64,000 nt of DNA from Spirochaetia bacterium. Lineage in GTDB: Bacteria; Spirochaetota; Spirochaetia; SZUA-6; Bin103. The position numbers were made by a program, and so were the translations under genes. Shown in pieces: positions 2,476 through 52,050 of the stretch (position 1 is its first letter; every line of letters begins with the position of its first letter). The notes under the pieces are model-generated. The model did not search any database, was not told the origin of the DNA, and was given only the letters and a program-made list of their open reading frames with translations. Where the stretch lies: assembly GCA_965203905.1 (NCBI GenBank), contig CBDBDQ010000005.1, positions 5,664,001 to 5,728,000 on the forward strand, written 5' to 3'.

Positions 2476-3333
2476 TTAGCACGGCCACATGAGCGGCCAG
2501 TAGGGGCCGGCGAACGGCTGGCCGGGGCGGGCGTCGGGACCGAGGAACAGCATGTTCGGGTGGTATTGGCGGCTCTCCCGGTAGCAGGTGTCTCCCGGCA
2601 TCATGTGCGAGATAAGGCACAGGCGCGCGGCGTCGCTCAGGTTGGGGCCGGAGCCGTGCAGCGTGAGGCAGTGGTGGAAGCTCACCTCGCCCTCGCGCAG
2701 CAGGCACGGCTCGTCGATCCAGGCGCCACTGATCTCCTGCGTCGACAACCGCGCCTTCAGGCCCTCCAGGTCCTTCTTGCCGAAGTTGGCGCTGTCCTCA
2801 AGCAGGCCCCAGCGGTGCGAGCCGACGATGGTGCGCATGGCGCCGTTGCCGAGGTCGGTGTCCTGCAGTGCGATCCAGGCGGTGCACATGTTGCGGGAGC
2901 TGGAGCACTGCCAGTGGCCGTAGTCCTGGTGCCAGCCGATGTTGCCAGCGGTGACGTCGGTGCCTCGCACGCCGACGCCCGGCTTGATGACCGCCTGGTC
3001 GTGCCACAGGCGCACCTCCTCCACGCCCATGAAGCGGGCGCCGATGGCGCCCAGCAGCGGGCTGGTGGTCAGCGCACGGATCTCGTCGTTGAGCCAGAAC
3101 GCGTTGCACTGCTGGCGCACCGCGGTGGCATCCGGCTCGTCTCGAGGCGGTCCGTACTGCGACGGGATCGGGTGGTCGAAGTCACCCGCCCAGAGGCGCT
3201 CGTGGGCGCGCCGCAGCCGGGCGGTGGTGTGCTCGTCGAACAGCCTCGGGCTGCGCCAGTAGCCCCGCTCGCGGTACTCCGCCAGCACCGCTGCGTCAAT
3301 CAGCGTATCGACGTCGATCCCTTCGACTACCAT
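2476..3333 (-). CDS. Phytanoyl-CoA dioxygenase (PhyH) family Fe(II)/2OG oxygenase
   Basis: GWHQD, TAWIALQD, NGAM..GSH and distal LHGSGPN...R motifs. Confidence 0.9.
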   Translation of the reverse strand: MVVEGIDVDTLIDAAVLAEYRERGYWRSPRLFDEHTTARLRRAHERLWAGDFDHPIPSQYGPPRDEPDATAVRQQCNAFWLNDEIRALTTSPLLGAIGARFMGVEEVRLWHDQAVIKPGVGVRGTDVTAGNIGWHQDYGHWQCSSSRNMCTAWIALQDTDLGNGAMRTIVGSHRWGLLEDSANFGKKDLEGLKARLSTQEISGAWIDEPCLLREGEVSFHHCLTLHGSGPNLSDAARLCLISHMMPGDTCYRESRQYHPNMLFLGPDARPGQPFAGPYWPLMWPC

Positions 3334-3361: not shown

Positions 3362-6076
3362 CTAGGCAAACTCGACCGTCACTTCGCGCAGCGATGGGGT
3401 GTGGCACCCGTCGAGGGAGGTGAGCGTGGCCTGGTACTGCAGCCAGCGCTGCGGCCCGCGGAAGTCCGCCACGGCGCCGGGCGCCCGGTAGGTGCTGCCC
3501 GGGCCGTTCGCTCCGCGCCACGGCGCCCGCTCCAGCTCCGCGCGTGAGCCGGCCCAGCGGAGCTGCAGCTCGACCGCGGTGCGCGGCGGGGTGCTCGCGC
3601 TCCAATCCACCCGCACCGGCCGCCTGCCGGCCAGCTCGTACACCGGGGAACGGTAGCGCTCGCACGGTTCGCGGGTGAACGCGTTGCCGAAGTCGCGCGG
3701 CGTGCTCAGGTGGGGGCCCATGCCGGGCAGGCGCGTGGGGTGAGCCAGGTCGAGCCCGTCGGGTCCGTTGCGGAACAGCAGGGAGTCCACGCGGTGCCCG
3801 AGGTCGGTGCGGTGGCACACGGCGAACACGTCGCGCCAGCCGTTGCCGGTGGTGTCCACCACCTGGAAGGCGCAGCTCGCGTCGCAGTCGATCACCGTCG
3901 GCCGGTCGTAGTCGATGCCGCCGGGGGTGCCCCAGTAGAGGTGCGCCGGCAGCACGCGACTGGACGGCGTGGAATAGGCCGGCACCAGCAGGTCCAGGTG
4001 GCCGTCGCGATTCACGTCGGCAACGGTCAGCAGGATGCTGGAAGCCTCCGTGCGGTGAAACTCGCCGCGCTCCTGGGAGTACCCTTCGGGGCCGCCGTAG
4101 AGAATGAAGAAGCCGCTGTCGATACGGGTGTAGTGGCCCATCAGCACCACGATCAGGTCCAGGCTGCCGTTGCCGGTGAGGTCGGCGCAGTTGATGGCGG
4201 CCACGTTGCCCGGCCCGCCGATGTCAAGGGGAATGCGGCTCACGCGCTGCGCGGAGAAACCCTGGGGACCGCCGTGATAGATGGCCAGGTAGCCGCGCAC
4301 GTCGTAGCAGATCACGTCCAGCCAGCCGTCGCCGTCCAGGTCGGCGACGCGGGCGTTGCCCTTGGTGTAGGTGGGCAGCGAGGTGCAGCGGGCGCTGGAA
4401 TAGCCCTCTGGTGAACCGTGATAGATCACGGACGAGGCGGCCATGGTGGCTGGCTTGTCATCGTAGGTGTAGGCCACCGCCAGCAGGTCGAGCCAGCCGT
4501 TGCGGTTGAAGTCGCCAACCTGCACGTAGTGCATGTTCTGGCCAGCGGCGCGCAGGTCGGTGTAGCGGTCCGCACGCAGGCCGTCCGGACCGCCGTGGAA
4601 CACGCGCAGACCCACGCGCGCGGTGCACACCAGGTCGGCATGGCCGTCCTGGTCGAGGTCGGCGACGATGTAGGTGTTGCTGCCGCCGGTGGGCAGCTCC
4701 TGGCGCCGCTCCGGGTCGAAGCGCCCGCCCGGCGCGCCCGGGTACACGTACACCGGGAACTCGGGATCGTTCTGCGAGGGGCCGGCCATGGTGTTGTTGA
4801 ACACCACCTCCGGACGGCCGTCGCCGTCCAGGTCGGCGGCGGTGCAGCCCATGGCGCCGCCGGTCGCCAGCCGCTCGACCCGCTGCGCCGAGAACCCCTG
4901 CGGGCCGTTCCAGTAGATCACCGACTCGGTGTCGTAGGAGCGGCCATCCTCGCGCCGCGAGACGATCAGGTCGACACGGCCGTCGCCGTCCAGGTCGGCG
5001 GCGTGCACCCAGGAGCAGTAGGTAAGAGGCAGGAGCTGGCGCACCCGGTCGAGGGCGTCCGCGGAGCGGATCTCAACCCCGCGCTGCGCCGCGATCAGCA
5101 GCTCGTCGCGTCCATCCCCATCCACGTCGGCGGCGGCGATGCGGGCGGCGCCCTCGGCGAACATCGTCCAGGTGCCCTCGATCGGCAGCACCGTACGCAC
5201 GTCGGGGGCGATGCGGCCGCCGCGGTTCCAGAAGATTCGTACCTGGTGGCCGCCGGAGAAGATCACCTCCTTCATGCCGTCGCCGTCCAGGTCGGCCAGG
5301 GCCACCTGCATGGCATAGCGGGTCGGCAGCCGCAGCGGAGCGTCCACCGCGAAGCCGCTGCCGCGCCGCCGATAGAGGAACGAGTCGGTGTGATGTTCGA
5401 AGCCGGCGCGGTAGTTGGCCACCACCAGCTCCAGCTCGCCGTCGCCGTCGATATCCTCGCACGCCACCGCCAGCGCTCCCACTCCGGGAATCGCGAACTC
5501 CGCGGTGGCATCTTCGAACACCCGTGGCGCGGTCTGCAGGTATACGTGCAGCGGGCGCGGCTCGCCGGCGTTGTGATGGTCCACCCACGCCGACGGCAGG
5601 ATCAGGTCCAGCAGCCCGTTGCCGGTCAGGTCGACGGCGGCCACGTCGTAGGCGCCGGCGGTGGGAAGCACGGCGCGCTCGCCGGTCAGCCCGGCGGGGC
5701 CGCCCCAGTACACGTAGGAGTCCAGTTCGGAGGTGACCCCGTTCTCGGCGTTGACCACGACCAGGTCGAGGAATCCATCGCCATCCACGTCGGCGGCATG
5801 GCTCATCCAGCCGCTGTCGTTGGTCAGCTCGCGCCTCCCCCACTCCGCGCCGGAAGCCGGCGGCTGGGTGTAGATCCAGGTGGGGCCGCGTTCGTCGTAG
5901 CCGTGGGAGTTGGGAAATACCAGGTCGACGTGGCCGTCGCCGTTCAGGTCGGTGCGATGGATCCACTCGACGGCGCCCGAGGCGGTCAGGTAGAGGTTGT
6001 CGCCGCCGTTGTCGAACTCGCCCTGCCGGAAGGCGGCGAGTCCGCCGTGGGTCCATCGCGGAGGCGACTCACCCAT
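3362..6076 (-). CDS. FG-GAP/VCBS repeat beta-propeller protein
   Basis: Many ADLDGDGxxDL repeats. Start placed at ATG 6076 because the track extension overlaps the tRNA. Confidence 0.88.
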   Translation of the reverse strand: MGESPPRWTHGGLAAFRQGEFDNGGDNLYLTASGAVEWIHRTDLNGDGHVDLVFPNSHGYDERGPTWIYTQPPASGAEWGRRELTNDSGWMSHAADVDGDGFLDLVVVNAENGVTSELDSYVYWGGPAGLTGERAVLPTAGAYDVAAVDLTGNGLLDLILPSAWVDHHNAGEPRPLHVYLQTAPRVFEDATAEFAIPGVGALAVACEDIDGDGELELVVANYRAGFEHHTDSFLYRRRGSGFAVDAPLRLPTRYAMQVALADLDGDGMKEVIFSGGHQVRIFWNRGGRIAPDVRTVLPIEGTWTMFAEGAARIAAADVDGDGRDELLIAAQRGVEIRSADALDRVRQLLPLTYCSWVHAADLDGDGRVDLIVSRREDGRSYDTESVIYWNGPQGFSAQRVERLATGGAMGCTAADLDGDGRPEVVFNNTMAGPSQNDPEFPVYVYPGAPGGRFDPERRQELPTGGSNTYIVADLDQDGHADLVCTARVGLRVFHGGPDGLRADRYTDLRAAGQNMHYVQVGDFNRNGWLDLLAVAYTYDDKPATMAASSVIYHGSPEGYSSARCTSLPTYTKGNARVADLDGDGWLDVICYDVRGYLAIYHGGPQGFSAQRVSRIPLDIGGPGNVAAINCADLTGNGSLDLIVVLMGHYTRIDSGFFILYGGPEGYSQERGEFHRTEASSILLTVADVNRDGHLDLLVPAYSTPSSRVLPAHLYWGTPGGIDYDRPTVIDCDASCAFQVVDTTGNGWRDVFAVCHRTDLGHRVDSLLFRNGPDGLDLAHPTRLPGMGPHLSTPRDFGNAFTREPCERYRSPVYELAGRRPVRVDWSASTPPRTAVELQLRWAGSRAELERAPWRGANGPGSTYRAPGAVADFRGPQRWLQYQATLTSLDGCHTPSLREVTVEFA

Positions 6077-6121
6077 GGTGGTCGCTCCGGGGGATGGCAG
6101 TCCGCGCCACGAACTGCCAAG

Positions 6122-6194
6122 AGCCAGAAAGGGGATTCGAACCCCTGACCTGTTCATTACGAGTGAACCGCTCTGCCAACTGAGCTATTCTGGC
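6122..6194 (-). tRNA. tRNA-Thr(CGT)
   Basis: GCCAGAATAGCTCAGTTGGCAGAGCGGTTCACTCGTAATGAACAGGTCAGGGGTTCGAATCCCCTTTCTGGCT folds to a cloverleaf with anticodon CGT; CCA not encoded. Confidence 0.96.
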
Positions 6195-6265: not shown

Positions 6266-7108
6266 TTATGACGGCCGCCACGCGCCGTCGTAGCCGGTAT
6301 AACCCTCGGTGTAGTGCTTCAGCCGGTCGGGCAGGCGGTCGATCAGCGCCCGCGCCGACTGCGGGAGCGGCCACGGGGCGTCGATCCGCCACGCCTTGGG
6401 ACGGAACCCGATGCCGCACGAGTAGCGGCGTTCGCGGGTCGCCATGTTGACGTGGAAGGTGCGGTCGGCGAAGCAGAGCAGGTCCCCCGGATCGGCGCTC
6501 ACCGCGACACAACCGGGTACGTCCATGTCCGTGCAGGGATCGTCCGCGCCGAGCCGGCGCATGCTGTTCCCGTTGTTGATGAGCTGGAAGCCCTCCGGCT
6601 GCCAGTCCGGAAGGTGCGACTGCTCGATCACGGCCAGGCCGCTGCGCTCCGGATCGCTGCCGTTGAGGTAGAACCAGAGGCCGCTCGGGAGCGGGAACCG
6701 GTTGAGGACCTGGTTCGCGTTCTGCGGTTCGCCCTCGAGATGGCCCTGGAAGTCCATGTGCCAGGCGCCCATCCCCTCGCCGGGAGTGCGCAGGATCGCC
6801 GCCGAGCGGTGCAGGCACAGCTCCCGCGTGCCGTTCACGGCGCAGATGAAATCCCAGTAGGGCGCGTGATCCACCAGCGTCCAGACCGGCTGGCTCACCT
6901 CCGCGAACGCCATGTGGTACTTGTTGGAAGCCGGGGGCAGCGAGCGCTCGGGATCCAGGTGCCGATCGATCGAGTCCTTCAGATCCTGCACCAGCGCAGG
7001 ACCGATCATGCCGCGCAGCACGCAGAAACCGTGGCGTTCGAGACATGCGAATGCCCCCGCGTGGTCGTGCGGCTCGAAGTGGTAACGGTATGAGGGGTTG
7101 TTGGCCAT
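6266..7108 (-). CDS. PhyH family Fe(II)/2OG oxygenase
   Basis: GFCVLRG, WHMD, PGDLLCF..TFH and RRYS motifs. Confidence 0.85.
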   Translation of the reverse strand: MANNPSYRYHFEPHDHAGAFACLERHGFCVLRGMIGPALVQDLKDSIDRHLDPERSLPPASNKYHMAFAEVSQPVWTLVDHAPYWDFICAVNGTRELCLHRSAAILRTPGEGMGAWHMDFQGHLEGEPQNANQVLNRFPLPSGLWFYLNGSDPERSGLAVIEQSHLPDWQPEGFQLINNGNSMRRLGADDPCTDMDVPGCVAVSADPGDLLCFADRTFHVNMATRERRYSCGIGFRPKAWRIDAPWPLPQSARALIDRLPDRLKHYTEGYTGYDGAWRPS

Positions 7109-7114
7109 GGTACC

Positions 7115-7957
7115 TCAGTCGTTGCTCTTCTCGGCGCCCGCGATCGAGCGGTCGGGAAGGGTGTAGTCCATCCAGGCGGTGAGCGCCTTCTGTTGCGGGG
7201 TGAAGCGGCGCCGGATCGAGGGCGGCATCCAGTAGTGGCGGGCATTGTGGTAGTCGGTCATGTAGGAGGCGGCCCGCAGCCGCTCGACGTGGTTGTACTG
7301 CAGCGCGGTGCGCCGGCGCGCCGTGGTCTTGGGAGCGCCCGAGTGTACCAGCGCCTCGGTGAAGAGCAGCACGTCGCCAGGCTCGCCGGTGACCTCCAGG
7401 GCGCCCGGGGTATCCAGGCCGGCCATTCCCCAGCGCTTCAGGTCCAGCCTGAAGTTCTTCTTGTGCGAGCCGGGTATCACCGCCAGGCAGCCGTCTCCCG
7501 GATGGTTTGGCGTCAGCATGGTGACCACGTTCAGCATCGGGGAGCGGATCTTGCCGTCGCGCACCGAATAGTCCTCGGGCGGCAGGCCGTGATGCCAGTG
7601 GGTGGCCCCCCGCCCGGGATACTTGGAGATCGACCAGGTGTTGATCAACTGCGGCCGGTCCATGAACTCCTCGAGATAGGGCAGATATCCCGGGTGAGCG
7701 ATCAACCGGTCGAACACGGGATCGAGCCGCGGCAGGCCGTTGAGGCGCACCTGGTGCTCCATCCAGCGGTCCTTGGTGAAGTACGCGTTGGTGACCACCG
7801 GCAATCCTTCCGCCCAACTCTCGTCGTGCTCGATGGCCTCGTTGGCCACGACAGCCTCATCCAGCGCCGCTACCAGTTCGGGCTCGATCGCGCCCCGCAG
7901 GATCAGAAACCCCTGCAGGTCGAACAGGAATCTTTCGTCGTCCGTTACCTCATGCAC
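7115..7957 (-). CDS. PhyH-fold oxygenase with HxG motif (tandem copy B)
   Basis: FDLQGFLIL, WHHG, VIPGSHK, FTEALVHSG..RRT; GTG start. Confidence 0.88.
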   Translation of the reverse strand: MHEVTDDERFLFDLQGFLILRGAIEPELVAALDEAVVANEAIEHDESWAEGLPVVTNAYFTKDRWMEHQVRLNGLPRLDPVFDRLIAHPGYLPYLEEFMDRPQLINTWSISKYPGRGATHWHHGLPPEDYSVRDGKIRSPMLNVVTMLTPNHPGDGCLAVIPGSHKKNFRLDLKRWGMAGLDTPGALEVTGEPGDVLLFTEALVHSGAPKTTARRRTALQYNHVERLRAASYMTDYHNARHYWMPPSIRRRFTPQQKALTAWMDYTLPDRSIAGAEKSND

Positions 7958-7963
7958 CGTTCC

Positions 7964-8824
7964 TTACCTCGCGTCGGGAGGGTCGTTGCTCTTCTCGGCG
8001 CCCGCGATCGAGCGGTCGGGAATCGTGTAGTCCATCCAGGCGGTGAGCGCCTTCTGTTCCGGGGTGAAGCGGCGGCGGATGGAGGGCGGCATCCAGTAGT
8101 GGCGGACATTGTGGTAGTCGGTCATGGCGGAGCCGGCCCGCATCCGCTCGACATGGTTGTACTGCAGCGTGGTGCGCCGCCGTGGCGAGGTCTTGGCGGC
8201 GCCGGTGTGCACCAGTGCCTCGGTGAACAGCATCACGTCGCCGGGCTCGCCGGTGATCTCGACGGCGCCCGGCGTGTCCATGCCGGCCGCTCCCCAGCGC
8301 TTCAAGTCCAGCTTGAAATTCTTCTTGTGCGAGCCCGGAATCACGGCGAAGCAGCCGTCACCCGGGTGGTTGGGCGTGAGCATCGTGACCACGTTCAACA
8401 TCGGCGAGCGAATCTTGCCGTCACGTACCGAGTAGTCCTCGGGAGCCAGACCGTGATGCCAGTGGGTAGCTCCCCGGCCGGGATACTTGGAGATCGACCA
8501 GGTGTTGACCAACTGCGGCTCGTTCATGAACTCGTGGAGATACGGCAGATACCCGGGGTGAGCGATCAGCCGGTCGAACACGCGATCGAGCCGCGGAAGG
8601 CCGTTGAGGCGAACCTGGTGCTCCAGAAACAGGTCCTTGGTAAAGAGCGGGCGATGTTGGACCACCGGCAGTCCTTCCGCCCAACTGTCGTCGTGCTCGA
8701 TTGCCTCGTTGGCCACCACGGCCTCATCGAGCGCCGCCACCAGGTCGGGCTCGATCGCGCCGCGCAGGATCAGAAAGCCCTGCAGGTCGAACAGGAATTT
8801 TTCGTCGTCGGTTACCTCATGCAT
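7964..8824 (-). CDS. PhyH-fold oxygenase with HxG motif (tandem copy A)
   Basis: Near-identical to 7115-7957; ATG 8824 (MHEVTDDEK). Confidence 0.88.
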   Translation of the reverse strand: MHEVTDDEKFLFDLQGFLILRGAIEPDLVAALDEAVVANEAIEHDDSWAEGLPVVQHRPLFTKDLFLEHQVRLNGLPRLDRVFDRLIAHPGYLPYLHEFMNEPQLVNTWSISKYPGRGATHWHHGLAPEDYSVRDGKIRSPMLNVVTMLTPNHPGDGCFAVIPGSHKKNFKLDLKRWGAAGMDTPGAVEITGEPGDVMLFTEALVHTGAAKTSPRRRTTLQYNHVERMRAGSAMTDYHNVRHYWMPPSIRRRFTPEQKALTAWMDYTIPDRSIAGAEKSNDPPDAR

Positions 8825-11577: not shown

Positions 11578-11593
11578 GGGAGGTGCCGGGTCG

Positions 11594-12379
11594 ATGGCCG
11601 ACACACTGACCACAGAGCAGCGGGCGGGGTTCGAAACCGACGGCTACCTGGTGCTGGAGGGACTGCTGGACGCAAAGGAGTGCGGCCTGCTGCGGGCGGA
11701 GGTGGATCACCTGGCGCAGCGGCGCGCCGCGGGCGAGCAGCCGCTGATCGTTTCCTATCCGCGGATGGCGCTGCTCACCTCGCATCCGCCAACGATGACC
11801 CCGGTGCAACAGCTCATGGGCGGAGAGTTCGCCATGCACCACATCCACGCCTCGCGCCACGACGCGGGCCAGGAGGGCGTGCCCTGGCACCAGGACTACG
11901 AGCAGTATCCGCAGACCAACCGCTCCCACTTGATGGTGCACGTGTTCTACTACCTGAACGGTCTCAACGGCGAGGTGGGCGACCTGCTGCTGGTGCCGCG
12001 CTCGCAGCACAGCGTGATCGCGCGCGATGCCCTGCACCTCTTCGGGACCGAGGACCTTCCCGGTTCGCTGACGGTAGACCGGCTGGCGCCCGGTTCGGCC
12101 ATCATTGTCCACTCCGCGTTGTTCCACGCCCGGCGCGCGAAACCGGGCGGCGCCGGCCAGCCGCGCTACTTCATCGATATCTCCTATTGCCGGAACGGCA
12201 TCCTCTGGCCGGGCTACCCGCGCATGGACCTGATCAACGCCAAGGCGCTGGAGATGGGCGCCGACCGCGGCGGCCGCTACGCGTTCCTGTACGACGCCAG
12301 CCACTTCTTCGAGCAGGCACCGCGGCGCGAGCGACTGCAGCGGGCGGCGGGGAGCCTGGTGCTGGATCTGGGTGAGTGA
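11594..12379 (+). CDS. PhyH family Fe(II)/2OG oxygenase
   Basis: FETDGYLVL, PWHQD, HSALFHAR; ATG 11594 after GGAGG. Confidence 0.88.
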   Translation: MADTLTTEQRAGFETDGYLVLEGLLDAKECGLLRAEVDHLAQRRAAGEQPLIVSYPRMALLTSHPPTMTPVQQLMGGEFAMHHIHASRHDAGQEGVPWHQDYEQYPQTNRSHLMVHVFYYLNGLNGEVGDLLLVPRSQHSVIARDALHLFGTEDLPGSLTVDRLAPGSAIIVHSALFHARRAKPGGAGQPRYFIDISYCRNGILWPGYPRMDLINAKALEMGADRGGRYAFLYDASHFFEQAPRRERLQRAAGSLVLDLGE

Positions 12380-19772: not shown

Positions 19773-20828
19773 CTACTCGTGGTCTGGGCGAGCCTGTTGA
19801 TAGAAACGTCGCGTACGACGGATCATGGTCTCGAACAGACCAGGAAGTTTATCCTTCACCATTGTCATAGGGACAACTGAAAATGCTCTATGGACCAGTG
19901 TCTCGGCTGTCACTTGGATCTGCTTTAGAACCTCGATTCTTGAATGAATCGAAATCGGAACCTGTTCGGGAGCTAGTACAAAGATCCACGAGTTTCTCGT
20001 GGGAGCACTTCTGCGCTTGTCGTCTGTCCACTCTAGACCAGCAAAGTGAGGTGCCCAACTCTCCCACACAGATTCGGGAAGTCCAAGTACCACCCCGGCA
20101 CAGCGGTCTTGACCAGAAAGACCGAACTTAAGTATGAGCTGATATATGGTTCGCTTAAAGACGTTGGCAATATTCGGACCTTCTATCTTGCGTCCTAACC
20201 ATGTCTGATTATTCTCCACTTGCTTTCCGAATTCATCAACATGTAGATCGACAGCAGCCTCCAGTGCACGTACGGCATGCCGATAGCTTCCATGGAAATC
20301 CATTGTTTGGATCTCAAGGATACCGTAGCGCTTCAGAAGCAACCAATCGTGCTTAGCGTTGCACTCTATGATCGTGACATCGAAGGAGATCTCCGGGGTA
20401 GTTGATGACCCTGTGACATTCAACTCGCCACCAAGCTTGTCTTGGAAAAAAATATAAATTGTTTCTTTGGAAGCACGCTCAAGGATGTAATTCCGACGGC
20501 TTTCGTCTTGCAGATGCACCACTGGAAAAACGGGTATTTCTTGTCTGTTGTCCGAGAATATCTTGCGCGTTACTTGGTGGATGACTGGTCGCTCCAGAGC
20601 TCTGTATGGGCAGACGATCCAGTCTCTGATGCCTGATTTTGTCGTAGAAACAGTGCAGACACCGGCACTATTGGGACTCTTGATGCAGGCTGTCGGTGTT
20701 TCGAGTGCGTCACTAAGGAAGGGACATCTCTTTTGCTGAAACAGACGGATTGCATCCGAGGAACAAGACACGGATGGAAAGAGACGCACGCCGTACCACT
20801 CCGAGATAAAGTTCGACGTAGTGCTCAT
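19773..20828 (-). CDS. NotI-family type II restriction endonuclease
   Basis: CPF..C.K..GVC..WIVCPYR Cys4 motif, EIQTMDFHGSY, GPNIANVFKR; lower GC. Confidence 0.8.
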   Translation of the reverse strand: MSTTSNFISEWYGVRLFPSVSCSSDAIRLFQQKRCPFLSDALETPTACIKSPNSAGVCTVSTTKSGIRDWIVCPYRALERPVIHQVTRKIFSDNRQEIPVFPVVHLQDESRRNYILERASKETIYIFFQDKLGGELNVTGSSTTPEISFDVTIIECNAKHDWLLLKRYGILEIQTMDFHGSYRHAVRALEAAVDLHVDEFGKQVENNQTWLGRKIEGPNIANVFKRTIYQLILKFGLSGQDRCAGVVLGLPESVWESWAPHFAGLEWTDDKRRSAPTRNSWIFVLAPEQVPISIHSRIEVLKQIQVTAETLVHRAFSVVPMTMVKDKLPGLFETMIRRTRRFYQQARPDHE

Positions 20829-21898
20829 TCGCCGCCAAGGAACTTGTCAGCAAGCTCGAAGCCCACGGCGTTACGGCCTGTCTCAGCGGCACACCACAAG
20901 GCAGATCCGGTGCCACAGAATGGATCTAGGACAAGACCGTCTGGCGGACTCGAACTTAATATCCGAGGTCTGATCAGCTGGATTGGAAAAGTAGCCGAAT
21001 GACCGTTTCTTCCCGGCCGAACGTTGCACTTGACCACGTCCAACTCATACTCCTCGACTTCAGAGAGATCGTAGTAGTACTTTGCCCTTCCTTCCTTGGG
21101 GCGTTTCACGAAATGAAAAAAATGTTCGTGCGCAAGACGTAGCCGATCTTTCTCTGGACGAGGCGGCACATTAGGCTTAAACCAGATCAGGTCGTTGCGC
21201 AATATCCATCTCTCGTTTTCCATCGCGATGGCAAACCGAGATGGAACCAACAATAATTGTTTTTCCTGGAGGTAGCGACCCATTGGAGTCCGCCTGCGAA
21301 TGCGGTCGTTGTTGCCGAGTCCTTGTCGACCGTCATCTCTGATGCTCGCCCACCTGGCAAAGTAGGTGTCGCCGACATTCACCCATATGCTTCCGTGGTC
21401 TTTGAGCTTCGTCATGGCCTTGGAGAAGAACGCCACAAGATGGTCCACGTACCACTCGGGAAGTGGCTCTAATCCGAGTACTCCACCATTTTTTTTGTAC
21501 CAATCCCACGGTGGTGAATCTCGATGGCCAGTCTCTTCTTCCCACGCATCAAGGATATGCCAGTTGTGTTCTAACCCATATGTCCGTTGCCCCCAGTAGG
21601 GAGGACTGGTAATGATCAAATCCACCGAAGCGTCATCGATCTGCTCGATTAGATGAAAGGCATCTCCTTTGCGGATCTGGCACCGTGCATCTCCTCCTTG
21701 TGGATAGTTTCGCAATGAAGAGTCAGGAACCGAGTCTACTTCAGCTGCCGGATCTACGAACACATCGAAGTGTAGTTGGCGGTCCGCAATGCGCTGCGGA
21801 GTGGAAAGACCGGGAGGGTAAGAAATTGGAGCATGCTCGCCTGCCTCAGCGGCCGTCCTCGTGGGGCCCGCCTCAGGGCCTTTCCCAGGATTCTTCAC
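20825..21898 (-). CDS. N4-cytosine DNA methyltransferase (beta class)
   Basis: ITSPPYW precedes VLDPFCGTGS; HSATFP; ATGA overlap with the endonuclease. Confidence 0.9.
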   Translation of the reverse strand: MKNPGKGPEAGPTRTAAEAGEHAPISYPPGLSTPQRIADRQLHFDVFVDPAAEVDSVPDSSLRNYPQGGDARCQIRKGDAFHLIEQIDDASVDLIITSPPYWGQRTYGLEHNWHILDAWEEETGHRDSPPWDWYKKNGGVLGLEPLPEWYVDHLVAFFSKAMTKLKDHGSIWVNVGDTYFARWASIRDDGRQGLGNNDRIRRRTPMGRYLQEKQLLLVPSRFAIAMENERWILRNDLIWFKPNVPPRPEKDRLRLAHEHFFHFVKRPKEGRAKYYYDLSEVEEYELDVVKCNVRPGRNGHSATFPIQLIRPRILSSSPPDGLVLDPFCGTGSALWCAAETGRNAVGFELADKFLGGE

Positions 21899-24465: not shown

Positions 24466-25233
24466 TTACTGGTTCTTGCCCACGACACCGGGCTGATGCT
24501 GGTTGGCGCCCATCAGTTGCCGCACCAGCTCCGATGGGTTGTCCAGGTCCGCCAGTTGCGCGCGCATGTCCTCCTGGGTCACGTAGATGGGCCGGATGAA
24601 CATCCCCAGCAGGGCACTGCGCGGCGCGTTGGAGGTGTTGGGACGGGCGGTGTGCCAGGTCGCCCCGTGCATCACCATCACGCTGCCGCGAATCCCGGTC
24701 AGGACCTCGGCGTCGGGGTTCCACTCGGAGGCGGTCTCCGGCGCCGGCCGATGCCCCTTGCGGTGGCTGAAAGGGACGAGCCCGGTGCCTCCGTTCTCGG
24801 CCGAGAAGTCGTTCAGCATCCACATTGTCTGTCCGCTGATGCGGTCGCTCGGCCACGGCTGATTGAGCCGCTGATAGGGCCAGTCGGGATGCCAGCCGTA
24901 GCGGTTGTAGCCGGGATACGTGGTGTTGGCGGTCCACGTGGCGCAGATCACGTCCGGGTCGAGGTAGCGCCGCCAGATCGCCACGATCAGGGGATGGGTC
25001 AGCAGCTCCAGGAAGATCGGGTGCTTGACCGCAATCCGGGCCACCCGCTGGGTCCTCCTCTCGCGGCTCGTTTCATCACCCTCATCCGCCAGGATGCGCT
25101 CCAGGATGGTGCGCGCCCGGTCCGCCTTCTCTACCGGGATCACCGACGGGATGACGCAATACCCGCGTTCGTCGATCTCGGCGATGATTCCCGCAACGTC
25201 GTGACCACCGTTCGACCCGTTTTCCGCACTCAT
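24466..25233 (-). CDS. PhyH family Fe(II)/2OG oxygenase
   Basis: GYCVIP, GWHPD, DFSAENGGT..VPFSH, TWH..N...R; ATG 25233. Confidence 0.88.
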   Translation of the reverse strand: MSAENGSNGGHDVAGIIAEIDERGYCVIPSVIPVEKADRARTILERILADEGDETSRERRTQRVARIAVKHPIFLELLTHPLIVAIWRRYLDPDVICATWTANTTYPGYNRYGWHPDWPYQRLNQPWPSDRISGQTMWMLNDFSAENGGTGLVPFSHRKGHRPAPETASEWNPDAEVLTGIRGSVMVMHGATWHTARPNTSNAPRSALLGMFIRPIYVTQEDMRAQLADLDNPSELVRQLMGANQHQPGVVGKNQ

Positions 25234-25303
25234 GCCCTGCTCCCTCTCCAGTCTCCGAAGTATACCCAACCCGCGGCGCTTCCTGGACCCACCGCCAGCG
25301 CGC

Positions 25304-25390
25304 CTACTCGTACAGGAAGCACTTGATGAGAACCCCGTCCACCTCGACGTCCTGCGGCATCTCCTGCCGGCACTTCTCCATCCCCTCGGG
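25304..25390 (-). pseudogene. 3' remnant of an oligopeptide ABC ATPase (OppD/F C-terminus)
   Basis: PEGMEKCRQEMPQDVEVDGVLIKCFLYE* resembles the Cys-rich oligo_HPY tail; the upstream gene is absent. Confidence 0.45.
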
Positions 25391-25497
25391 ATTGAATCTG
25401 CGGAGCACGTAAGGCCCGATGTTCGTGTTGTCACGAATCGGGATCTTGGCTAAACTTCGGCCATACCAACTACTTGGCGCGCAGGAGGATACTGGAC

Positions 25498-29377: not shown

Positions 29378-30047
29378 TTACACGCCAGCCGCGGACCAGA
29401 AGTGAGTGATCACTCCGTAACGCGGAATATCGGTGGCGTTGCCACCGGCGTAATGCAGCGTGCGGCAGTGGTGAAAGGTGGCATCGCCCGGCTCCAGGGT
29501 CACCGCCACGGCCTTGCCGCTATCGGTCGTAGTGGCCAGGGCGCCATTGATCTCAGAACGATCCGCGATCGAATAATGCTCCTGGATCGGGCCGAGATGG
29601 CTGCCCGGAATGAACTGCATGCCGCCGTTCTGCTCCCACGCCGGGGTCAGCGCCAGCCAGCAGGTCACCGCGCGGTCGGAGCCGTTGCGATCCTGCCAGT
29701 AGCCGGCGTCCTGGTGCCAGTCGGTCTCGGCCGGATAGTGCGCCGGCTTCATGATGAGCTGATCGTACTGGTACGCCGCTTCCGGCCCGATCAACTGGCG
29801 GGCGGCCGCCAGCGCATGTCGGAAGTAGGCATGGTCGCGCCAGTACGGCATTGTGCCGCGACGGATTGGCGAGTTGCACCATCGATCCCTTGACCCGCCG
29901 GTCGCCGAACGCCGGCACCTCGATATCGCCGCGCAACGCCCGGTCGTAATCCGCCAGCAGCTCCCTCACCTGCCCCGCGTCGATCAGTCCCTTGACCACC
30001 ACGAACCCGTCCCGCCGAAACGCGGCTACCTGTGGTCTCGACAGCAC
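29378..30047 (-). pseudogene. PhyH family oxygenase split by a +1 frameshift
   Basis: The N-part FRRDGFVVV joins the C-part (DWHQD, IPGSH, HHCRTLH) if one A is removed from CACAATG near 29852. Confidence 0.75.
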
Positions 30048-30305
30048 GGGGTTACTCCAGGTCCGGCAATTCTGCGCGTGGCGGCAGCACCGCGATGGTG
30101 CGCGTCGGGGCCGCGACGCTTGGCCGCTCCGAGTTTGGTGGCGTGGCGCGCCGTGTTTTCATGGTGGCCATGCGCAAGGGTAGCTCGCCGTCGGCGGCGC
30201 GACAAGCTGACTCCGCAGGCAGTTAGGCTCGCGGCCCTACCCTCGCCCGTGTACTGGTTGTCTCCGGCAACGATGGTCGGATAGTCTCGGGGAGAGAGGT
30301 GGGGA

Positions 30306-44754: not shown

Positions 44755-45573
44755 TCAGCTCTCGGTGTAGGTGGCGGTGGCTTCGCGGAACTCGGTCATC
44801 GGGCACCGCGGCGGCGTGCCGACCGGGTTGTGCCGCCAGCGGTCGGTGCCGCGTGCCCAGAACGCCTGGAACATCGGCCACTCGCGCAGGTCGCAGCGCA
44901 CTTCGCCCGCCGAGTAGCGCATCGTCAGCCCGCAGCGCAGCCGGTTCGAACGGTTGGGTTGAGAGCCGTGTACGATACGATCGTCGTGGAGGCTCATCTC
45001 GCCGGCGGCCAACTCCAGGAACACCGCCTCGCGCGGGTCGACCTGGCCGGCTTCGAGTTGCAGCGGCAGCACTGCCTTGCGGTCGTGCAGCGCGCCGTGC
45101 TGCAAGTGCCCCAGGGTGTGGGAGCCGGGAATCACCTGCATTGCCCCGTTGTCCCGGTCGGAGTCGGCGAACGCCAGCCAGGCGGTCACCGAACGGTGCG
45201 GCCGCAGCGGCCAGTAGAAGGCGTCCTGGTGCCAGGGGGTGAGCTTGCCGTCGCCGGGATCCTTGGCGAAGAACTGGGTGCCCCACAGGTAGAAGTCGGG
45301 CCCGAGCAACGACTCTACCCGGTCCAGAATCGCGGCGGCGGTGCACAGCTCGTACAGCTCGCGGTCGAATATGTGCCACCAGTCCATCTGCTGGGTCGAC
45401 GCACCCGCCGGCAGCAGCGCGCGCAGCCGCCGGAACAGCCGCCCCAGGCCCCCGGTCTCGGCCGCCGGCACTACCGGCACCGGGCACAGGTAGCCGCGAT
45501 CGTGGTACTGGCTCACCTGCGCCGCGCTGAGGGCGGTGGAGCGCGGCAGGCTGATTGCCTTCGATTCACTCAT
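44755..45573 (-). CDS. PhyH family Fe(II)/2OG oxygenase
   Basis: PWHQDAFYW, VIPGSH, SLHD..IVHGS.PN...RCG. Confidence 0.9.
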   Translation of the reverse strand: MSESKAISLPRSTALSAAQVSQYHDRGYLCPVPVVPAAETGGLGRLFRRLRALLPAGASTQQMDWWHIFDRELYELCTAAAILDRVESLLGPDFYLWGTQFFAKDPGDGKLTPWHQDAFYWPLRPHRSVTAWLAFADSDRDNGAMQVIPGSHTLGHLQHGALHDRKAVLPLQLEAGQVDPREAVFLELAAGEMSLHDDRIVHGSQPNRSNRLRCGLTMRYSAGEVRCDLREWPMFQAFWARGTDRWRHNPVGTPPRCPMTEFREATATYTES

Positions 45574-46581: not shown

Positions 46582-47406
46582 ATGACCGACGACGAAAAAT
46601 ACCTGTTCGACCTCAACGGCTACCTGGTGGTGCGTGACGCGCTGTCGCCCGAGGATATCGCTCTGGCCAACGCCGCCATCGACCGGCACGCTGGCGAGAT
46701 CCGCGAGCGGGTCGGAGAGGACTCGCTCTCCGGCGGCTCGGCGGCGCTGCGGGGCAGCACCGGCCGCGGCGACCTGGCGGGGGCGCTGATGTGGGAGGAC
46801 CCGTACGGGCGCCCGTTTCGCGACATGCTGGTGAATCGCAAGGTCGTGCCCTACCTGCACGAGCTGCTCGGTCCCGGCTTCCGGCTCGATCATAACCTCG
46901 GCATCCTCACCATGCGCAGGGGCGCGGAGGGGCACGTCCTGCACGGCTCCTCCGGTCCCGGCTTCGACCGCCATCAGTACTACATCGTACGCGACGGCAA
47001 GATGCACAACGGCCTCACGGTGGTCGCCTTCCAGCTCACCGACATCAACCCCGGCGACGGCGGCCTGTGCCTGGTTCCCGGCAGCCACAAGGGCAACTTC
47101 CCCTGCCCCGCCGCCCTGCGCCGCGGCGAGGCGCACCAGGAATTCGTCAAGCAGATCACCTGCAGGGCCGGGGACTGCGTCATCTTCACCGAGGCGGTCA
47201 CCCACGGCTCGCTGCCGTGGACCGCCGCCCACCAGCGCCGTACCGCCCTGTTCCGTTTCTCCCCCGGCAACCTGGCCTACGTCCCCCACGCCTGGCCGGC
47301 GGAGATGCTGGCCCTGATGACCCCCGAGCAGCGCCTGGTGATGGAGCCCCCCTACCACTCGCGCCTGGACCGCCCCGTGCTGGAGCTGGACAGCCGCCGC
47401 GCGTGA
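46582..47406 (+). CDS. PhyH-fold oxygenase with HxS motif
   Basis: YLFDLNGYLVV, LHGS, LVPGSHK, FTEAVTHG..RRT. Confidence 0.88.
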   Translation: MTDDEKYLFDLNGYLVVRDALSPEDIALANAAIDRHAGEIRERVGEDSLSGGSAALRGSTGRGDLAGALMWEDPYGRPFRDMLVNRKVVPYLHELLGPGFRLDHNLGILTMRRGAEGHVLHGSSGPGFDRHQYYIVRDGKMHNGLTVVAFQLTDINPGDGGLCLVPGSHKGNFPCPAALRRGEAHQEFVKQITCRAGDCVIFTEAVTHGSLPWTAAHQRRTALFRFSPGNLAYVPHAWPAEMLALMTPEQRLVMEPPYHSRLDRPVLELDSRRA

Positions 47407-49862: not shown

Positions 49863-51143
49863 GTGACCGTAGAACTGGTGGCAATCGGCTCCGAGCTGCT
49901 GCTCGGACAGATCGTGGACAGCAACTCGGCGTGGATGGCGCAGCGTCTGGCCGAGGTAGGCGCCGACCTGTATCGCAAGACTACCGTGGGCGACAACCTG
50001 GAGCGCATGGCAGACGTGCTCGACGGCGCGCTGGGGCGGGCGGACTGCGTGATCACCGGCGGTGGGCTGGGGCCCACCGAGGACGACCTCACCCGGCGAG
50101 CGGTGGCGCAGGTATTCGGGCGTCCCCTGGAACGCCACGCCGGCGCGCTGCGCAACCTGGAGCAGCGGTTCCGCGCGCGCGGCTTCGTGCTGACCCCGAA
50201 CAACGAGAAGCAGGCGCTGCTGCCGGCGGGCGCCACCCTGGTGCACAACCCCAACGGCACCGCCCCCGCATTCATCGTCGAGGATCGGCGTGGCACCGTG
50301 ATCAGCCTGCCGGGGGTGCCGTTCGAGATGAAGTGGCTGATGGAGCACGAGGTGGTGCCCTACCTGCGCCGCCGCTGGGGCCTCGACACGGTGATCCACC
50401 ACCGTGTGCTGAAGGTGGGAGAGCTGGGCGAGAGTGCGGTGGACCACCGCATCGGCGCCATCATGACGGAGTCGGCCAACCCCAAGGTAGGCGTGCTGGC
50501 GCGTCCGGGGCAGGTGGACGTGCGCATCAGCGCCCGCGCCGACTCGGCGGCCGCGGCGCGGGCGCTGATCGCGCCCACGGAGGCGCGCGTGCGCGCCGCC
50601 CTGGGCGACCACGTCTTCGCCACCGACGCGGAGACCCTGGAGAGCGTCGTGGCGGCGGCCCTGACCCGGCGCGGCTGGCGCGTGGCCAGCTACGAGGACC
50701 GCACCGGCGGCAGCGTGGCGGCGGCCCTGCGCGAGGCGGCCGGCGAGCGCTTCGTGGAGGGCCGCGTCGTCGCCACCGAGACCGGCCGCGCGCGGCTGGC
50801 GCAGGCCGGCGGCGAGGGGGCAGAGGCTTCCGGCGCTGCGCTGGCGGCGGCCATGGCGCGCGCCGTGCTCCGGCTCAGCGACGCCGACCTCGCCGTGGCG
50901 GTACACGCGGCCGACGCCGCCACGGACGCGGCCACGGAGGGCGCAGGAGCCGAGATGGCCGGTGCCGCCACCATGGCGGGCTCCGCCCAGCCCCAGAACC
51001 TCGGCCCGGGCAACACCTGGCTGGCGGTGGTCGGGGCCGCGGGGGAGCACAGCCACCACCTGGGAATCGGCGCGCGCGGCCAGGTGGACCGGCGCCGGGT
51101 GGCCGTCGCCGCCCTCAGCCTGCTGCGCAGAGCGCTGCTCTGA
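49863..51143 (+). CDS. cinA: Competence/damage-inducible protein A
   Basis: IGSELLLGQIVDSN, TGGLGPTEDDLT, NPNGTAP, LPGVPFEM; C-terminal domain degenerate. Confidence 0.88.
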   Translation: MTVELVAIGSELLLGQIVDSNSAWMAQRLAEVGADLYRKTTVGDNLERMADVLDGALGRADCVITGGGLGPTEDDLTRRAVAQVFGRPLERHAGALRNLEQRFRARGFVLTPNNEKQALLPAGATLVHNPNGTAPAFIVEDRRGTVISLPGVPFEMKWLMEHEVVPYLRRRWGLDTVIHHRVLKVGELGESAVDHRIGAIMTESANPKVGVLARPGQVDVRISARADSAAAARALIAPTEARVRAALGDHVFATDAETLESVVAAALTRRGWRVASYEDRTGGSVAAALREAAGERFVEGRVVATETGRARLAQAGGEGAEASGAALAAAMARAVLRLSDADLAVAVHAADAATDAATEGAGAEMAGAATMAGSAQPQNLGPGNTWLAVVGAAGEHSHHLGIGARGQVDRRRVAVAALSLLRRALL

Positions 51144-51195
51144 TCCCGGCCGGCGGCAACGAGCGCGGCCGCGGCGTGCTAACATGGTGGCCGCC

Positions 51196-52050
51196 ATGAC
51201 TGACACACCTGACGACCGTGGCGGGCCGCTGAGCGGCGCCGAGGTGGCGGCGTACCGGCACGACGGCATCGTGGTGCCGCGCCACGCGCTGCCGGCCGCG
51301 CAGCTTTCCTCGTTGACGGCTGCGCTGGACCGGCTGCTCGCCGACAACCCCGGCGTGCGCCCGGAGAAGCTGGTCAGCGCACATATCGAGCGCAGCGCGG
51401 AGGGCGTCAAGGGGAACCGCGTGTTCCTGGAGATTGCCCACCACGCCGCGGTGCTGGACGCGGTGGAGCAGCTCATCGGCCCCGACATCATCCTGTGGGG
51501 GTGCCAGGTATTCTGCAAACCCGGCGGCGACGGGATGGAGGTGCCGTGGCACCAGGACGGCCAGTATTGGCCGATCCGGCCGCTGGCTACCTGCACCGTC
51601 TGGATCGCGATCGACGCCAGCAGCACCGAGAACGGCTGTCTGCGGGTCATCCCCGGCTCGCATCACCGCCACCAGTTGCGCAGCCACCACCGCAGCACGC
51701 GCACCGACGTGGTGCTCGACCAGGAGCTGGACGCGGACGCCTTCGACGAGACGGCGGCCCGCGACGTGGAGCTGCAGCCCGGCCAGATGTCGCTGCACGA
51801 CGTGTACCTGATCCACGGCTCGCATGCCAACTCCTCGCCGCGGCGCCGCGCCGGGCTGGCGTTGCGCTACATGCCGGCCAGTTCCCACTTCGACCGCGGC
51901 CTGCTGCAGCCCGGTTCCTCCACTTCCACCTACGTCGTCGACTTTTCGCAGCGTCCGATCTGGCTGGTGCGCGGCGTCGACCGCAGCGGCAGGAACGACT
52001 TTCGGATCGGACACGATTCAGGCACGGAAAGGAGCAAGCAAGATGAGTGA
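51196..52050 (+). CDS. PhyH family Fe(II)/2OG oxygenase
   Basis: PWHQDGQYW, VIPGSH, SLHDVYLIHGS..N...RRAG. Confidence 0.9.
   Translation: MTDTPDDRGGPLSGAEVAAYRHDGIVVPRHALPAAQLSSLTAALDRLLADNPGVRPEKLVSAHIERSAEGVKGNRVFLEIAHHAAVLDAVEQLIGPDIILWGCQVFCKPGGDGMEVPWHQDGQYWPIRPLATCTVWIAIDASSTENGCLRVIPGSHHRHQLRSHHRSTRTDVVLDQELDADAFDETAARDVELQPGQMSLHDVYLIHGSHANSSPRRRAGLALRYMPASSHFDRGLLQPGSSTSTYVVDFSQRPIWLVRGVDRSGRNDFRIGHDSGTERSKQDE

Follow-up and report, generated by a model that had tools for sequence, protein, structure and literature searches.

In a 64,000-nucleotide (nt) stretch of DNA from a Spirochaetia bacterium (contig CBDBDQ010000005.1, positions 5,664,001 to 5,728,000; hereafter the window, by which the whole stretch is meant), two adjacent genes, which we label A (7115-7957) and B (7964-8824), encode paralogous members of the PhyH family of Fe(II)/2-oxoglutarate (2OG) oxygenases. 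Both proteins carry Gly where the canonical iron site has its Asp ligand (H-x-G for H-x-D), and a sequence-only reading of the window had proposed them as candidate free-standing radical halogenases. Our analysis leads elsewhere. A and B are most likely PhyH oxygenases with an iron site of the type described for HygX, the hygromycin B orthoester synthase of Streptomyces hygroscopicus, and members of an uncharacterised family rather than of a new halogenase class. As far as sequence comparison can tell, it is probable that both are active oxygenases in which the carboxylate ligand has been relocated, with a substrate that is possibly carbohydrate-derived.

The argument turns on Glu201 of A, which stands four residues ahead of the distal His in an E-x3-H motif. 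This Glu is present in all 51 members of an alignment of the family and lines up with the corresponding Glu of HygX, and the match of both proteins to the chlorinating-enzyme model TIGR01762 lies far below its cut-off; on these grounds the halogenase proposal is not upheld. The sequence-only reading had allowed that its proposal would fall if another residue supplied the third iron ligand, and named as examples the adjacent His123 and, in a PEDY motif, the ED. Both were rejected because they are not conserved: position 123 varies (Asn in 17, His in 15, Ser in 7, Ala in 6 and Arg in 6 of the 51), and at the first acidic position of PEDY no more than 26 of 51 have Glu, the second being Glu in 29, Asp in 18 and Gln in 4. 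It is to the invariant Glu201 that the sequence and fold comparisons point as the third ligand.

Proposed iron-site residues of the paralogues and their family

The features of A and B on which the argument depends are as follows.

7115..7957, minus strand: paralogue A, a PhyH-family Fe(II)/2OG oxygenase of 280 amino acids with H-x-G and E-x3-H; GTG start
7964..8824, minus strand: paralogue B, 286 amino acids, a tandem duplicate of A; ATG start at 8824
7586..7594, minus strand: His122-His123-Gly124 of A, the proximal His ligand and the Gly in the canonical Asp position (translation checked)
7343..7357, minus strand: E201-A-L-V-H205 of A, the proposed relocated carboxylate ligand and the distal His
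7310..7312, minus strand: Arg216 of A, within RRRT, the presumed 2OG-binding Arg
8450..8458, minus strand: H-H-G of B (translation checked)
8207..8221, minus strand: E-A-L-V-H of B (translation checked)

Membership of the PhyH family is clear from Pfam model PF05721, which scores 66.2 bits against A and 68.6 bits against B (cut-off 22) and is covered from position 1 to 212 of its 213. Both paralogues read WHHG where seven other PhyH proteins of the window read WHxD, as the sequence-only reading had observed and as an alignment of the nine sequences confirms, Gly and Asp falling in the same column. The seven lie at 2476-3333, 6266-7108, 11588-12379, 24469-25449, 29378-29851, 44755-45573 and 50962-52050. 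The comparison with solved relatives that it had called for agrees: HMMER sets the Gly opposite the ligand Asp in the WHSD of EctD (4mhr) and in the WHRD of EvdO1 (4xbz). Equally well founded was its statement that both proteins keep the distal His, within EALVH, and the 2OG-binding Arg, within RRRT. This Arg216 we take, from general knowledge of the PhyH family, to bind the C5-carboxylate of 2OG.

The two genes are themselves poor witnesses for one another. A and B are identical in 245 of 286 alignment columns (their identity is also put at 88%) and represent a fairly recent duplication, so that their two H-x-G motifs cannot be counted as independent. The ratio of nonsynonymous to synonymous substitution between them (dN 0.07, dS 0.36, dN/dS approximately 0.20) indicates that both copies are under purifying selection. 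We therefore rely on the wider family, which was sampled through 350 matches in a database clustered at 90% identity, through the alignment of 51 sequences at 48-88% identity, and through 306 relatives on genome contigs, from which 80 loci were kept for analysis. Within the alignment, His122, Glu201, His205 and Arg216 are each invariant (51/51), and position 124 is Gly in 50 members and Ala in the remaining one, which excludes chance as the origin of H-x-G in A and B.

The coupling of Gly at the triad position to Glu ahead of the distal His extends to every H-x-G sequence in the genomic sample. Among 163 PhyH open reading frames (ORFs) from the 80 loci and the window, Glu occupies the position four residues before the distal His (-4) in 86 of 86 ORFs with H-x-G, although these are not independent events because they belong mostly to one family. 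Approximately 69 of the same 163 have H-x-D and a distal His, and in these the -4 residue is Glu in 6 and Asp in 3. A search with the family profile over 1.84 billion representatives, each standing for a cluster at 50% identity, returned 2130 proteins at E <= 1e-3, 415 at E <= 1e-10 and 46 at E <= 1e-30. From 150 listed representatives, 113 sequences of at least 200 amino acids, counting in a third member of the clade from the window, went into an alignment against the family model. Of these, 67 match the pattern of H-x-G, E-x3-H and Arg exactly, others pair Ala, Ser, Asn or Pro at the Gly position with Glu or Asp at -4, and H-x-D occurs in a single representative, which has Gly at -4. Given the counts of 86/86, 67/113 and 1/113, H-x-G is a clade-wide trait accompanied by an acidic residue that is presumably compensating.

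The third member from the window, at 46582..47406 on the plus strand, is a divergent one, only 35% identical to A (Pfam PhyH 63.7 bits). At the triad position it has L-H-G-S (46939-46950), followed by E-A-V-T-H (47191-47205) and QRRT, and we place it in the relocated-carboxylate clade since it has E-x3-H and lacks the canonical Asp. The sequence-only reading had overlooked this gene, which is the window's tenth of the PhyH family; the ten start or end at 2476, 6266, 7115, 7964, 11588, 24469, 29378, 44755, 46582 and 50962. One of them, at 29378-30060 on the minus strand, seems frameshifted, with profile positions 53-257 (the C-terminal two thirds) in one frame and 11-94 in another, and is either a pseudogene or the product of an assembly error.

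Nearest solved relatives and the proposed reaction

Comparison with proteins of solved structure brings HygX to the fore. When the sequence of A alone was compared with those of solved structures, the orthosomycin oxygenase EvdO1 ranked at the top (E 1.5e-7), followed by HygX (E 1.6e-6), whereas the family profile placed HygX first (E 1.3e-12), with the family's 'sEALvH' aligned by HMMER column by column to the 'NEALMH' of HygX. An AlphaFold2 model of A, built from the 51-sequence alignment with a predicted local distance difference test (pLDDT) score of 91.5 and a predicted template modelling score (pTM) of 0.90, gave the same answer. The five top Foldseek matches in the Protein Data Bank (PDB) were all HygX chains (E 9e-17 to 1e-15, template modelling scores 0.61-0.71), and AsqJ, PrhA, FtmOx1 and similar oxygenases ranked after them; there were at least 500 matches at E <= 0.001, and all of those listed are 2OG oxygenases. 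The model has the double-stranded beta-helix of the PhyH type, no family member lacks His122, His205 or Arg216, and the family as a whole joins H-x-G (50/51) to E-x3-H (51/51) in the manner of HygX.

A 2026 review, in the passage that deals with HygX (PMC13374393), gives the enzyme the motif H-X-G…E-X3-H, with its acidic residue relocated, and has it convert hygromycin C into hygromycin B by orthoester formation; PMC8234114 and PMC11611013 refer to HygX but say nothing of its ligands. HygX (PDB 4XC9, 4XCA, 4XCB and 4ZPI) and the family share the PhyH-like double-stranded beta-helix, the Gly at the canonical carboxylate position, the E-x3-H leading up to the distal His and a conserved 'GSHK'. 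They differ in much else: A is only some 21-23% identical to HygX, which comes from actinomycete producers and belongs to an aminoglycoside biosynthetic cluster, whereas the genes of the window lie among those of catabolism and transport and their family is spread over many uncultured lineages. A scan of the window revealed no glycosyltransferase or aminoglycoside cluster around A and B, whose neighbours are instead EamA, DHDPS-family, PhyH, short-chain dehydrogenase (SDR), GH43 and ATP-binding cassette (ABC) transporter genes.

The next-best sequence matches, the orthosomycin oxygenases EvdO1 and AviO1 together with EctD, belong to the same Pfam family, and the first and last of these show the reciprocal arrangement: the Asp is in place (WHRD in EvdO1, WHSD in EctD), and the -4 residue is Ile and Cys, respectively, in neither case Glu. 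The match to AviO1 (chain 4xaa) is limited to the C-terminal half, which leaves its motif outside the comparison. Equivalence to EctD or to an enzyme of the PhnY type was rejected because the NCBIfam scores fall below threshold (27 and 32 bits against 336.5 for ectoine hydroxylase; 16 against 500 for methylphosphonate hydroxylase). The ESM Atlas returned clusters named 'phytanoyl-CoA dioxygenase family' and no others.

The halogenases SyrB2, CytC3, WelO5 and BesD do resemble A and B in that Gly or Ala replaces the carboxylate of their facial triad; the family of A and B is unlike them in its invariant Glu of E-x3-H and in a genomic context devoid of carrier proteins and non-ribosomal peptide synthetases (NRPS). 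TIGR01762 ('chlorinating enzyme') makes only a weak partial match, its scores of 22.3 and 21.5 bits comparing with a cut-off of 226.3, CytC3 reaches no better than E 0.67 with the family profile, and no halogenase stands among the 36 Foldseek matches listed for ranks 1 to 50. Moreover, H-x-G by itself is insufficient for halogenation, since it is carried both by HygX and by AspH, described in an extract of PMC10947486 as a hydroxylating enzyme with H-x-G…H, and neither is a halogenase.

We infer from these comparisons a rearranged 2-His-1-carboxylate site in which Fe(II) would be bound by His122, His205 and Glu201, with Gly124 just occupying the position vacated by Asp, as described for HygX. 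In such a site 2OG would chelate the iron while Arg216 held its distal carboxylate, and the decarboxylation of 2OG would be coupled to oxidation, O2 activation leading to a ferryl species that would abstract hydrogen from the substrate. Rebound would then yield a hydroxylated product, or the reaction might take an oxidative C-O course like that of HygX. If the protein itself supplies a carboxylate to the iron, leaving no dedicated halide site, oxygen transfer is what would be expected.

Gene order and genomic surroundings

Five genes lie in the same orientation on the minus strand between 6266 and 10776. In addition to A and B these are:

6266..7108, minus strand: canonical H-x-D PhyH gene (WHMD), 6 nt downstream of A; Pfam PhyH 33.1 bits
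8903..9808, minus strand: EamA-family transporter, upstream of B; Pfam EamA 87.5 bits
9847..10776, minus strand: DHDPS/DapA-family protein (class I aldolase family); Pfam DHDPS 175 bits

The co-orientation of A and B with a DHDPS-family gene, an EamA gene and a canonical hydroxylase gene, reported by the sequence-only reading, is therefore borne out. The DHDPS-family protein scores 150 bits against TIGR00674 (dapA), below the equivalog cut-off of 206. B, A and the PhyH gene at 6266-7108 follow one another at intervals of 6 nt, ribosome-binding sites of the GAGG type lie within the gene that precedes, and the three genes are most likely a single transcript; for B, an alternative and longer GTG ORF reaches 8851. 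Directly downstream of this PhyH operon lies a tRNA-Thr (CGT) gene at 6121-6194 on the minus strand. It runs into the initial codons of the longest FG-GAP ORF (3362-6157, minus strand), the true start of which probably lies further in.

Beyond the operon, the window encodes two sugar-type ABC transporter sets, a GH43 glycoside hydrolase, an N-acetylglucosamine (GlcNAc) 2-epimerase, an enolase-superfamily protein, a second DHDPS-family gene, SDRs and a 931-amino-acid FG-GAP repeat protein. Domains of NRPS, polyketide synthases (PKS) and carrier proteins are absent from the 48 window ORFs scanned, in keeping with the earlier statement that no NRPS lies nearby, and likewise from 134 neighbouring ORFs at 27 loci of close orthologues. 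A low-GC island at 19773-21898 (minus strand; GC 0.52 against approximately 0.68 around it) encodes an N6/N4 DNA methylase (20825-21898) together with a 351-amino-acid ORF with no Pfam match (19773-20828), and may be an acquired restriction-modification unit.

How far this gene order is kept elsewhere was assessed by tblastn of the window genes over the 80 loci, and by gene calling weighted by GC content at third codon positions (GC3), in which three genes on each side were tabulated for the 27 close-orthologue loci, L001 and L015 being left out. The sequence-only reading had treated the aldolase and EamA genes as part of a module with A and B, but the window's versions of these two genes recur in one locus of 80. 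That locus, L001, is the window's closest relative, a Spirochaetales record among metagenome-assembled genomes (MAGs) that is 95% identical to the window and syntenic over its whole 6.3 kb. A homologue of the H-x-D PhyH gene at 6266-7108 is found near a family gene in 4 of the 80. The commonest neighbour clusters over the 80 loci are sulfatases (22), SDRs (19) and enolase-superfamily proteins (10), and in four Spirochaetia loci an alpha-galactosidase-like hydrolase adjoins the family gene. Within three genes of the family gene, the 27-locus table contains:

Other PhyH genes, often tandem copies: 14 of 27 loci
ABC transporters: 7 of 27
Enolase-superfamily proteins: 6 of 27
Zn-dependent alcohol dehydrogenases: 4 of 27
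GDSL hydrolases: 4 of 27
Sulfatases (plus one FGE-sulfatase): 3 of 27
Amidohydrolase_2 proteins: 3 of 27
DHDPS-family protein: 1 of 27 (L017; a DHDPS-family gene different from that of the window, directly upstream of the family gene)

Taken together, the neighbours in the window and at the orthologous loci suggest that an imported organic compound is catabolised, a carbohydrate or sugar acid being one possibility, and a role in natural-product biosynthesis is unlikely. Mobile and toxin-antitoxin genes also occur in these surroundings. In L008 and L014 the genes flanking that of the family include transposases or integrases, and AbiEi/AbiEii-type toxin-antitoxin genes lie a few genes away from the family gene in L005 and L018, as does an AbiEi-type gene only in L010.

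Relatives 66-81% identical are present, by record title, in MAGs of Spirochaetia, Poribacteria, Latescibacterota, Gemmatimonadota, Trueperaceae, Planctomycetota, Opitutales and Chloroflexota. Tandem family copies are seen in several loci (e.g., L008, L024, L026, L027 and L029). Identity of this order across at least eight phyla or orders (L001-L029), together with the tandem copies, suggests from sequence that the family has undergone horizontal spread and repeated duplication.

Competing readings and the place of the family

Several points weigh against the relocated-carboxylate interpretation. The placement of Glu201 on the metal is drawn from an alignment and a fold match, and the conservation of this residue would fit a role in substrate binding or in the second coordination sphere as well. 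The HMMER alignments of HygX with the family never took in its own H-x-G stretch, and a 56-residue query around the motif found only chance matches among PDB sequences (E >= 1), so that the equivalence of the two H-x-G elements rests on the account in the review and on the overall fold match; that account of the HygX ligands is itself taken from the relevant passage of the review (PMC13374393). In addition, 3 of the 113 representatives (P0193, P0260 and P0269) combine H-x-G with Gly at -4 and have no acid at either position, from which it follows that the wider clade may include true 2-His sites. Two of the three are proteins of approximately 500 amino acids with the domain at the C-terminus, and all three, provided that they are correctly aligned, would have a stronger claim to a true 2-His site than the genes of the window. 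As for the substrate, many neighbours are unrelated to sugars, among them Opp-type transporters, peptidases, amidohydrolases, AMP-binding enzymes, thioesterases and mobile-element genes, to which the 27-locus table adds ADP-ribosylglycohydrolase and toxin-antitoxin genes, and neighbourhoods so heterogeneous point to no single substrate.

It is on the second-sphere role of Glu201, or some other role away from the metal, that the original proposal would now have to depend, with A and B as carrier-independent Fe(II)/2OG halogenases in which two His hold the iron and a halide takes the place of Asp. The H-x-G in the facial-triad position, the weak partial match to TIGR01762, the three acid-free representatives and the use of HXG/A as a mining motif for non-haem iron halogenases in the excerpted text of a preprint (PMC12871659) all lean this way. 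We nevertheless regard halogenation as very unlikely, given an invariant Glu that aligns with the HygX motif reported (in the review passage) to hold the relocated acidic residue, scores so far below the TIGR01762 cut-off, the poor match of CytC3 to the family profile, the lack of halogenases among the listed Foldseek matches, surroundings free of NRPS, carrier-protein or other biosynthetic-cluster genes in the window and at the 27 loci, and the existence, according to the extracts cited above, of H-x-G enzymes that do not halogenate. What had been suggested in wider terms, an undescribed halogenation or other non-canonical oxidation, accordingly stands in its second half alone, as a hedge: the iron site does look non-canonical, and an oxidation of another kind may go with it. 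More improbable still is that A and B are dead or merely metal-binding relics among many paralogues. Ten PhyH copies in 64 kb, one of them frameshifted, might invite such a view, but no family member has lost either His, the Glu or the 2OG Arg, dN/dS is 0.20, and identity is maintained at 66-81% across MAGs labelled as different phyla.

A closer competitor concerns the outcome of the reaction and not the site. A HygX-type site could serve non-hydroxylating chemistry on a sugar-like substrate, such as oxidative cyclisation, the making or breaking of a C-O bond or, in glycan catabolism, the oxidative removal of a sulfate ester or ether group. HygX, the best fold match, is also the sole characterised enzyme with the motif, and it performs an oxidative cyclisation on an aminoglycoside, to judge by the passage of the review that covers it; genes for sulfatases, glycoside hydrolases, sugar ABC transporters and enolase-superfamily proteins are found repeatedly in the vicinity of the family, and the invariant or near-invariant R77, K112, K166, K210, R249 and R251 would suit an anionic substrate. 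The low identity to HygX, the want of an orthosomycin-type cluster nearby, the widely varying neighbourhoods and the fact that sequence does not reveal reaction outcome all tell against it, and we hold this chemistry to be unlikely. Its most far-reaching form, in which a large uncharacterised clade would carry out HygX-like non-hydroxylating oxidation of host- or seawater-derived sulfated or acidic glycans, is a speculation that we put forward as a little less likely again. If it were true, the family would represent an undescribed 2OG-dependent route of glycan catabolism, for example by oxidative cleavage of a sulfate ester, an ether or a glycosidic bond. The interpretation that we prefer remains that of active PhyH oxygenases with a relocated carboxylate.

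For the mining of new halogenases, A and B are poor prospects, and they carry a caution. H-x-G is a widely used flag for radical halogenases (as seen in the excerpt of PMC12871659), yet a clade in which it is paired with a compensating E-x3-H would yield false positives, making the flag unsafe by itself; an added filter, that no Glu or Asp stand four residues before the distal His, would exclude such sequences. A literature search, with most subscription journals outside its range, singled out no H-x-G/E-x3-H group beyond HygX.

In the Poribacteria PhyH is the most abundant Pfam family, accounting for > 1.9% of genes and having a mostly unknown function, as stated in the excerpted text of Kamke et al. 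(2014; PMC3909097). The ten PhyH genes of our 64-kb window resemble this expansion in sponge-associated Poribacteria, and many relatives of A and B derive from Poribacteria MAGs, whereas the excerpt singles out no H-x-G/E-x3-H subgroup and the window's closest relative is instead the Spirochaetales MAG L001. Conserved and often tandemly duplicated, the family is part of the unexplained Poribacteria PhyH expansion (PMC3909097, in the same excerpt), and its substrate, once found, would tell something of what these uncultured bacteria consume.

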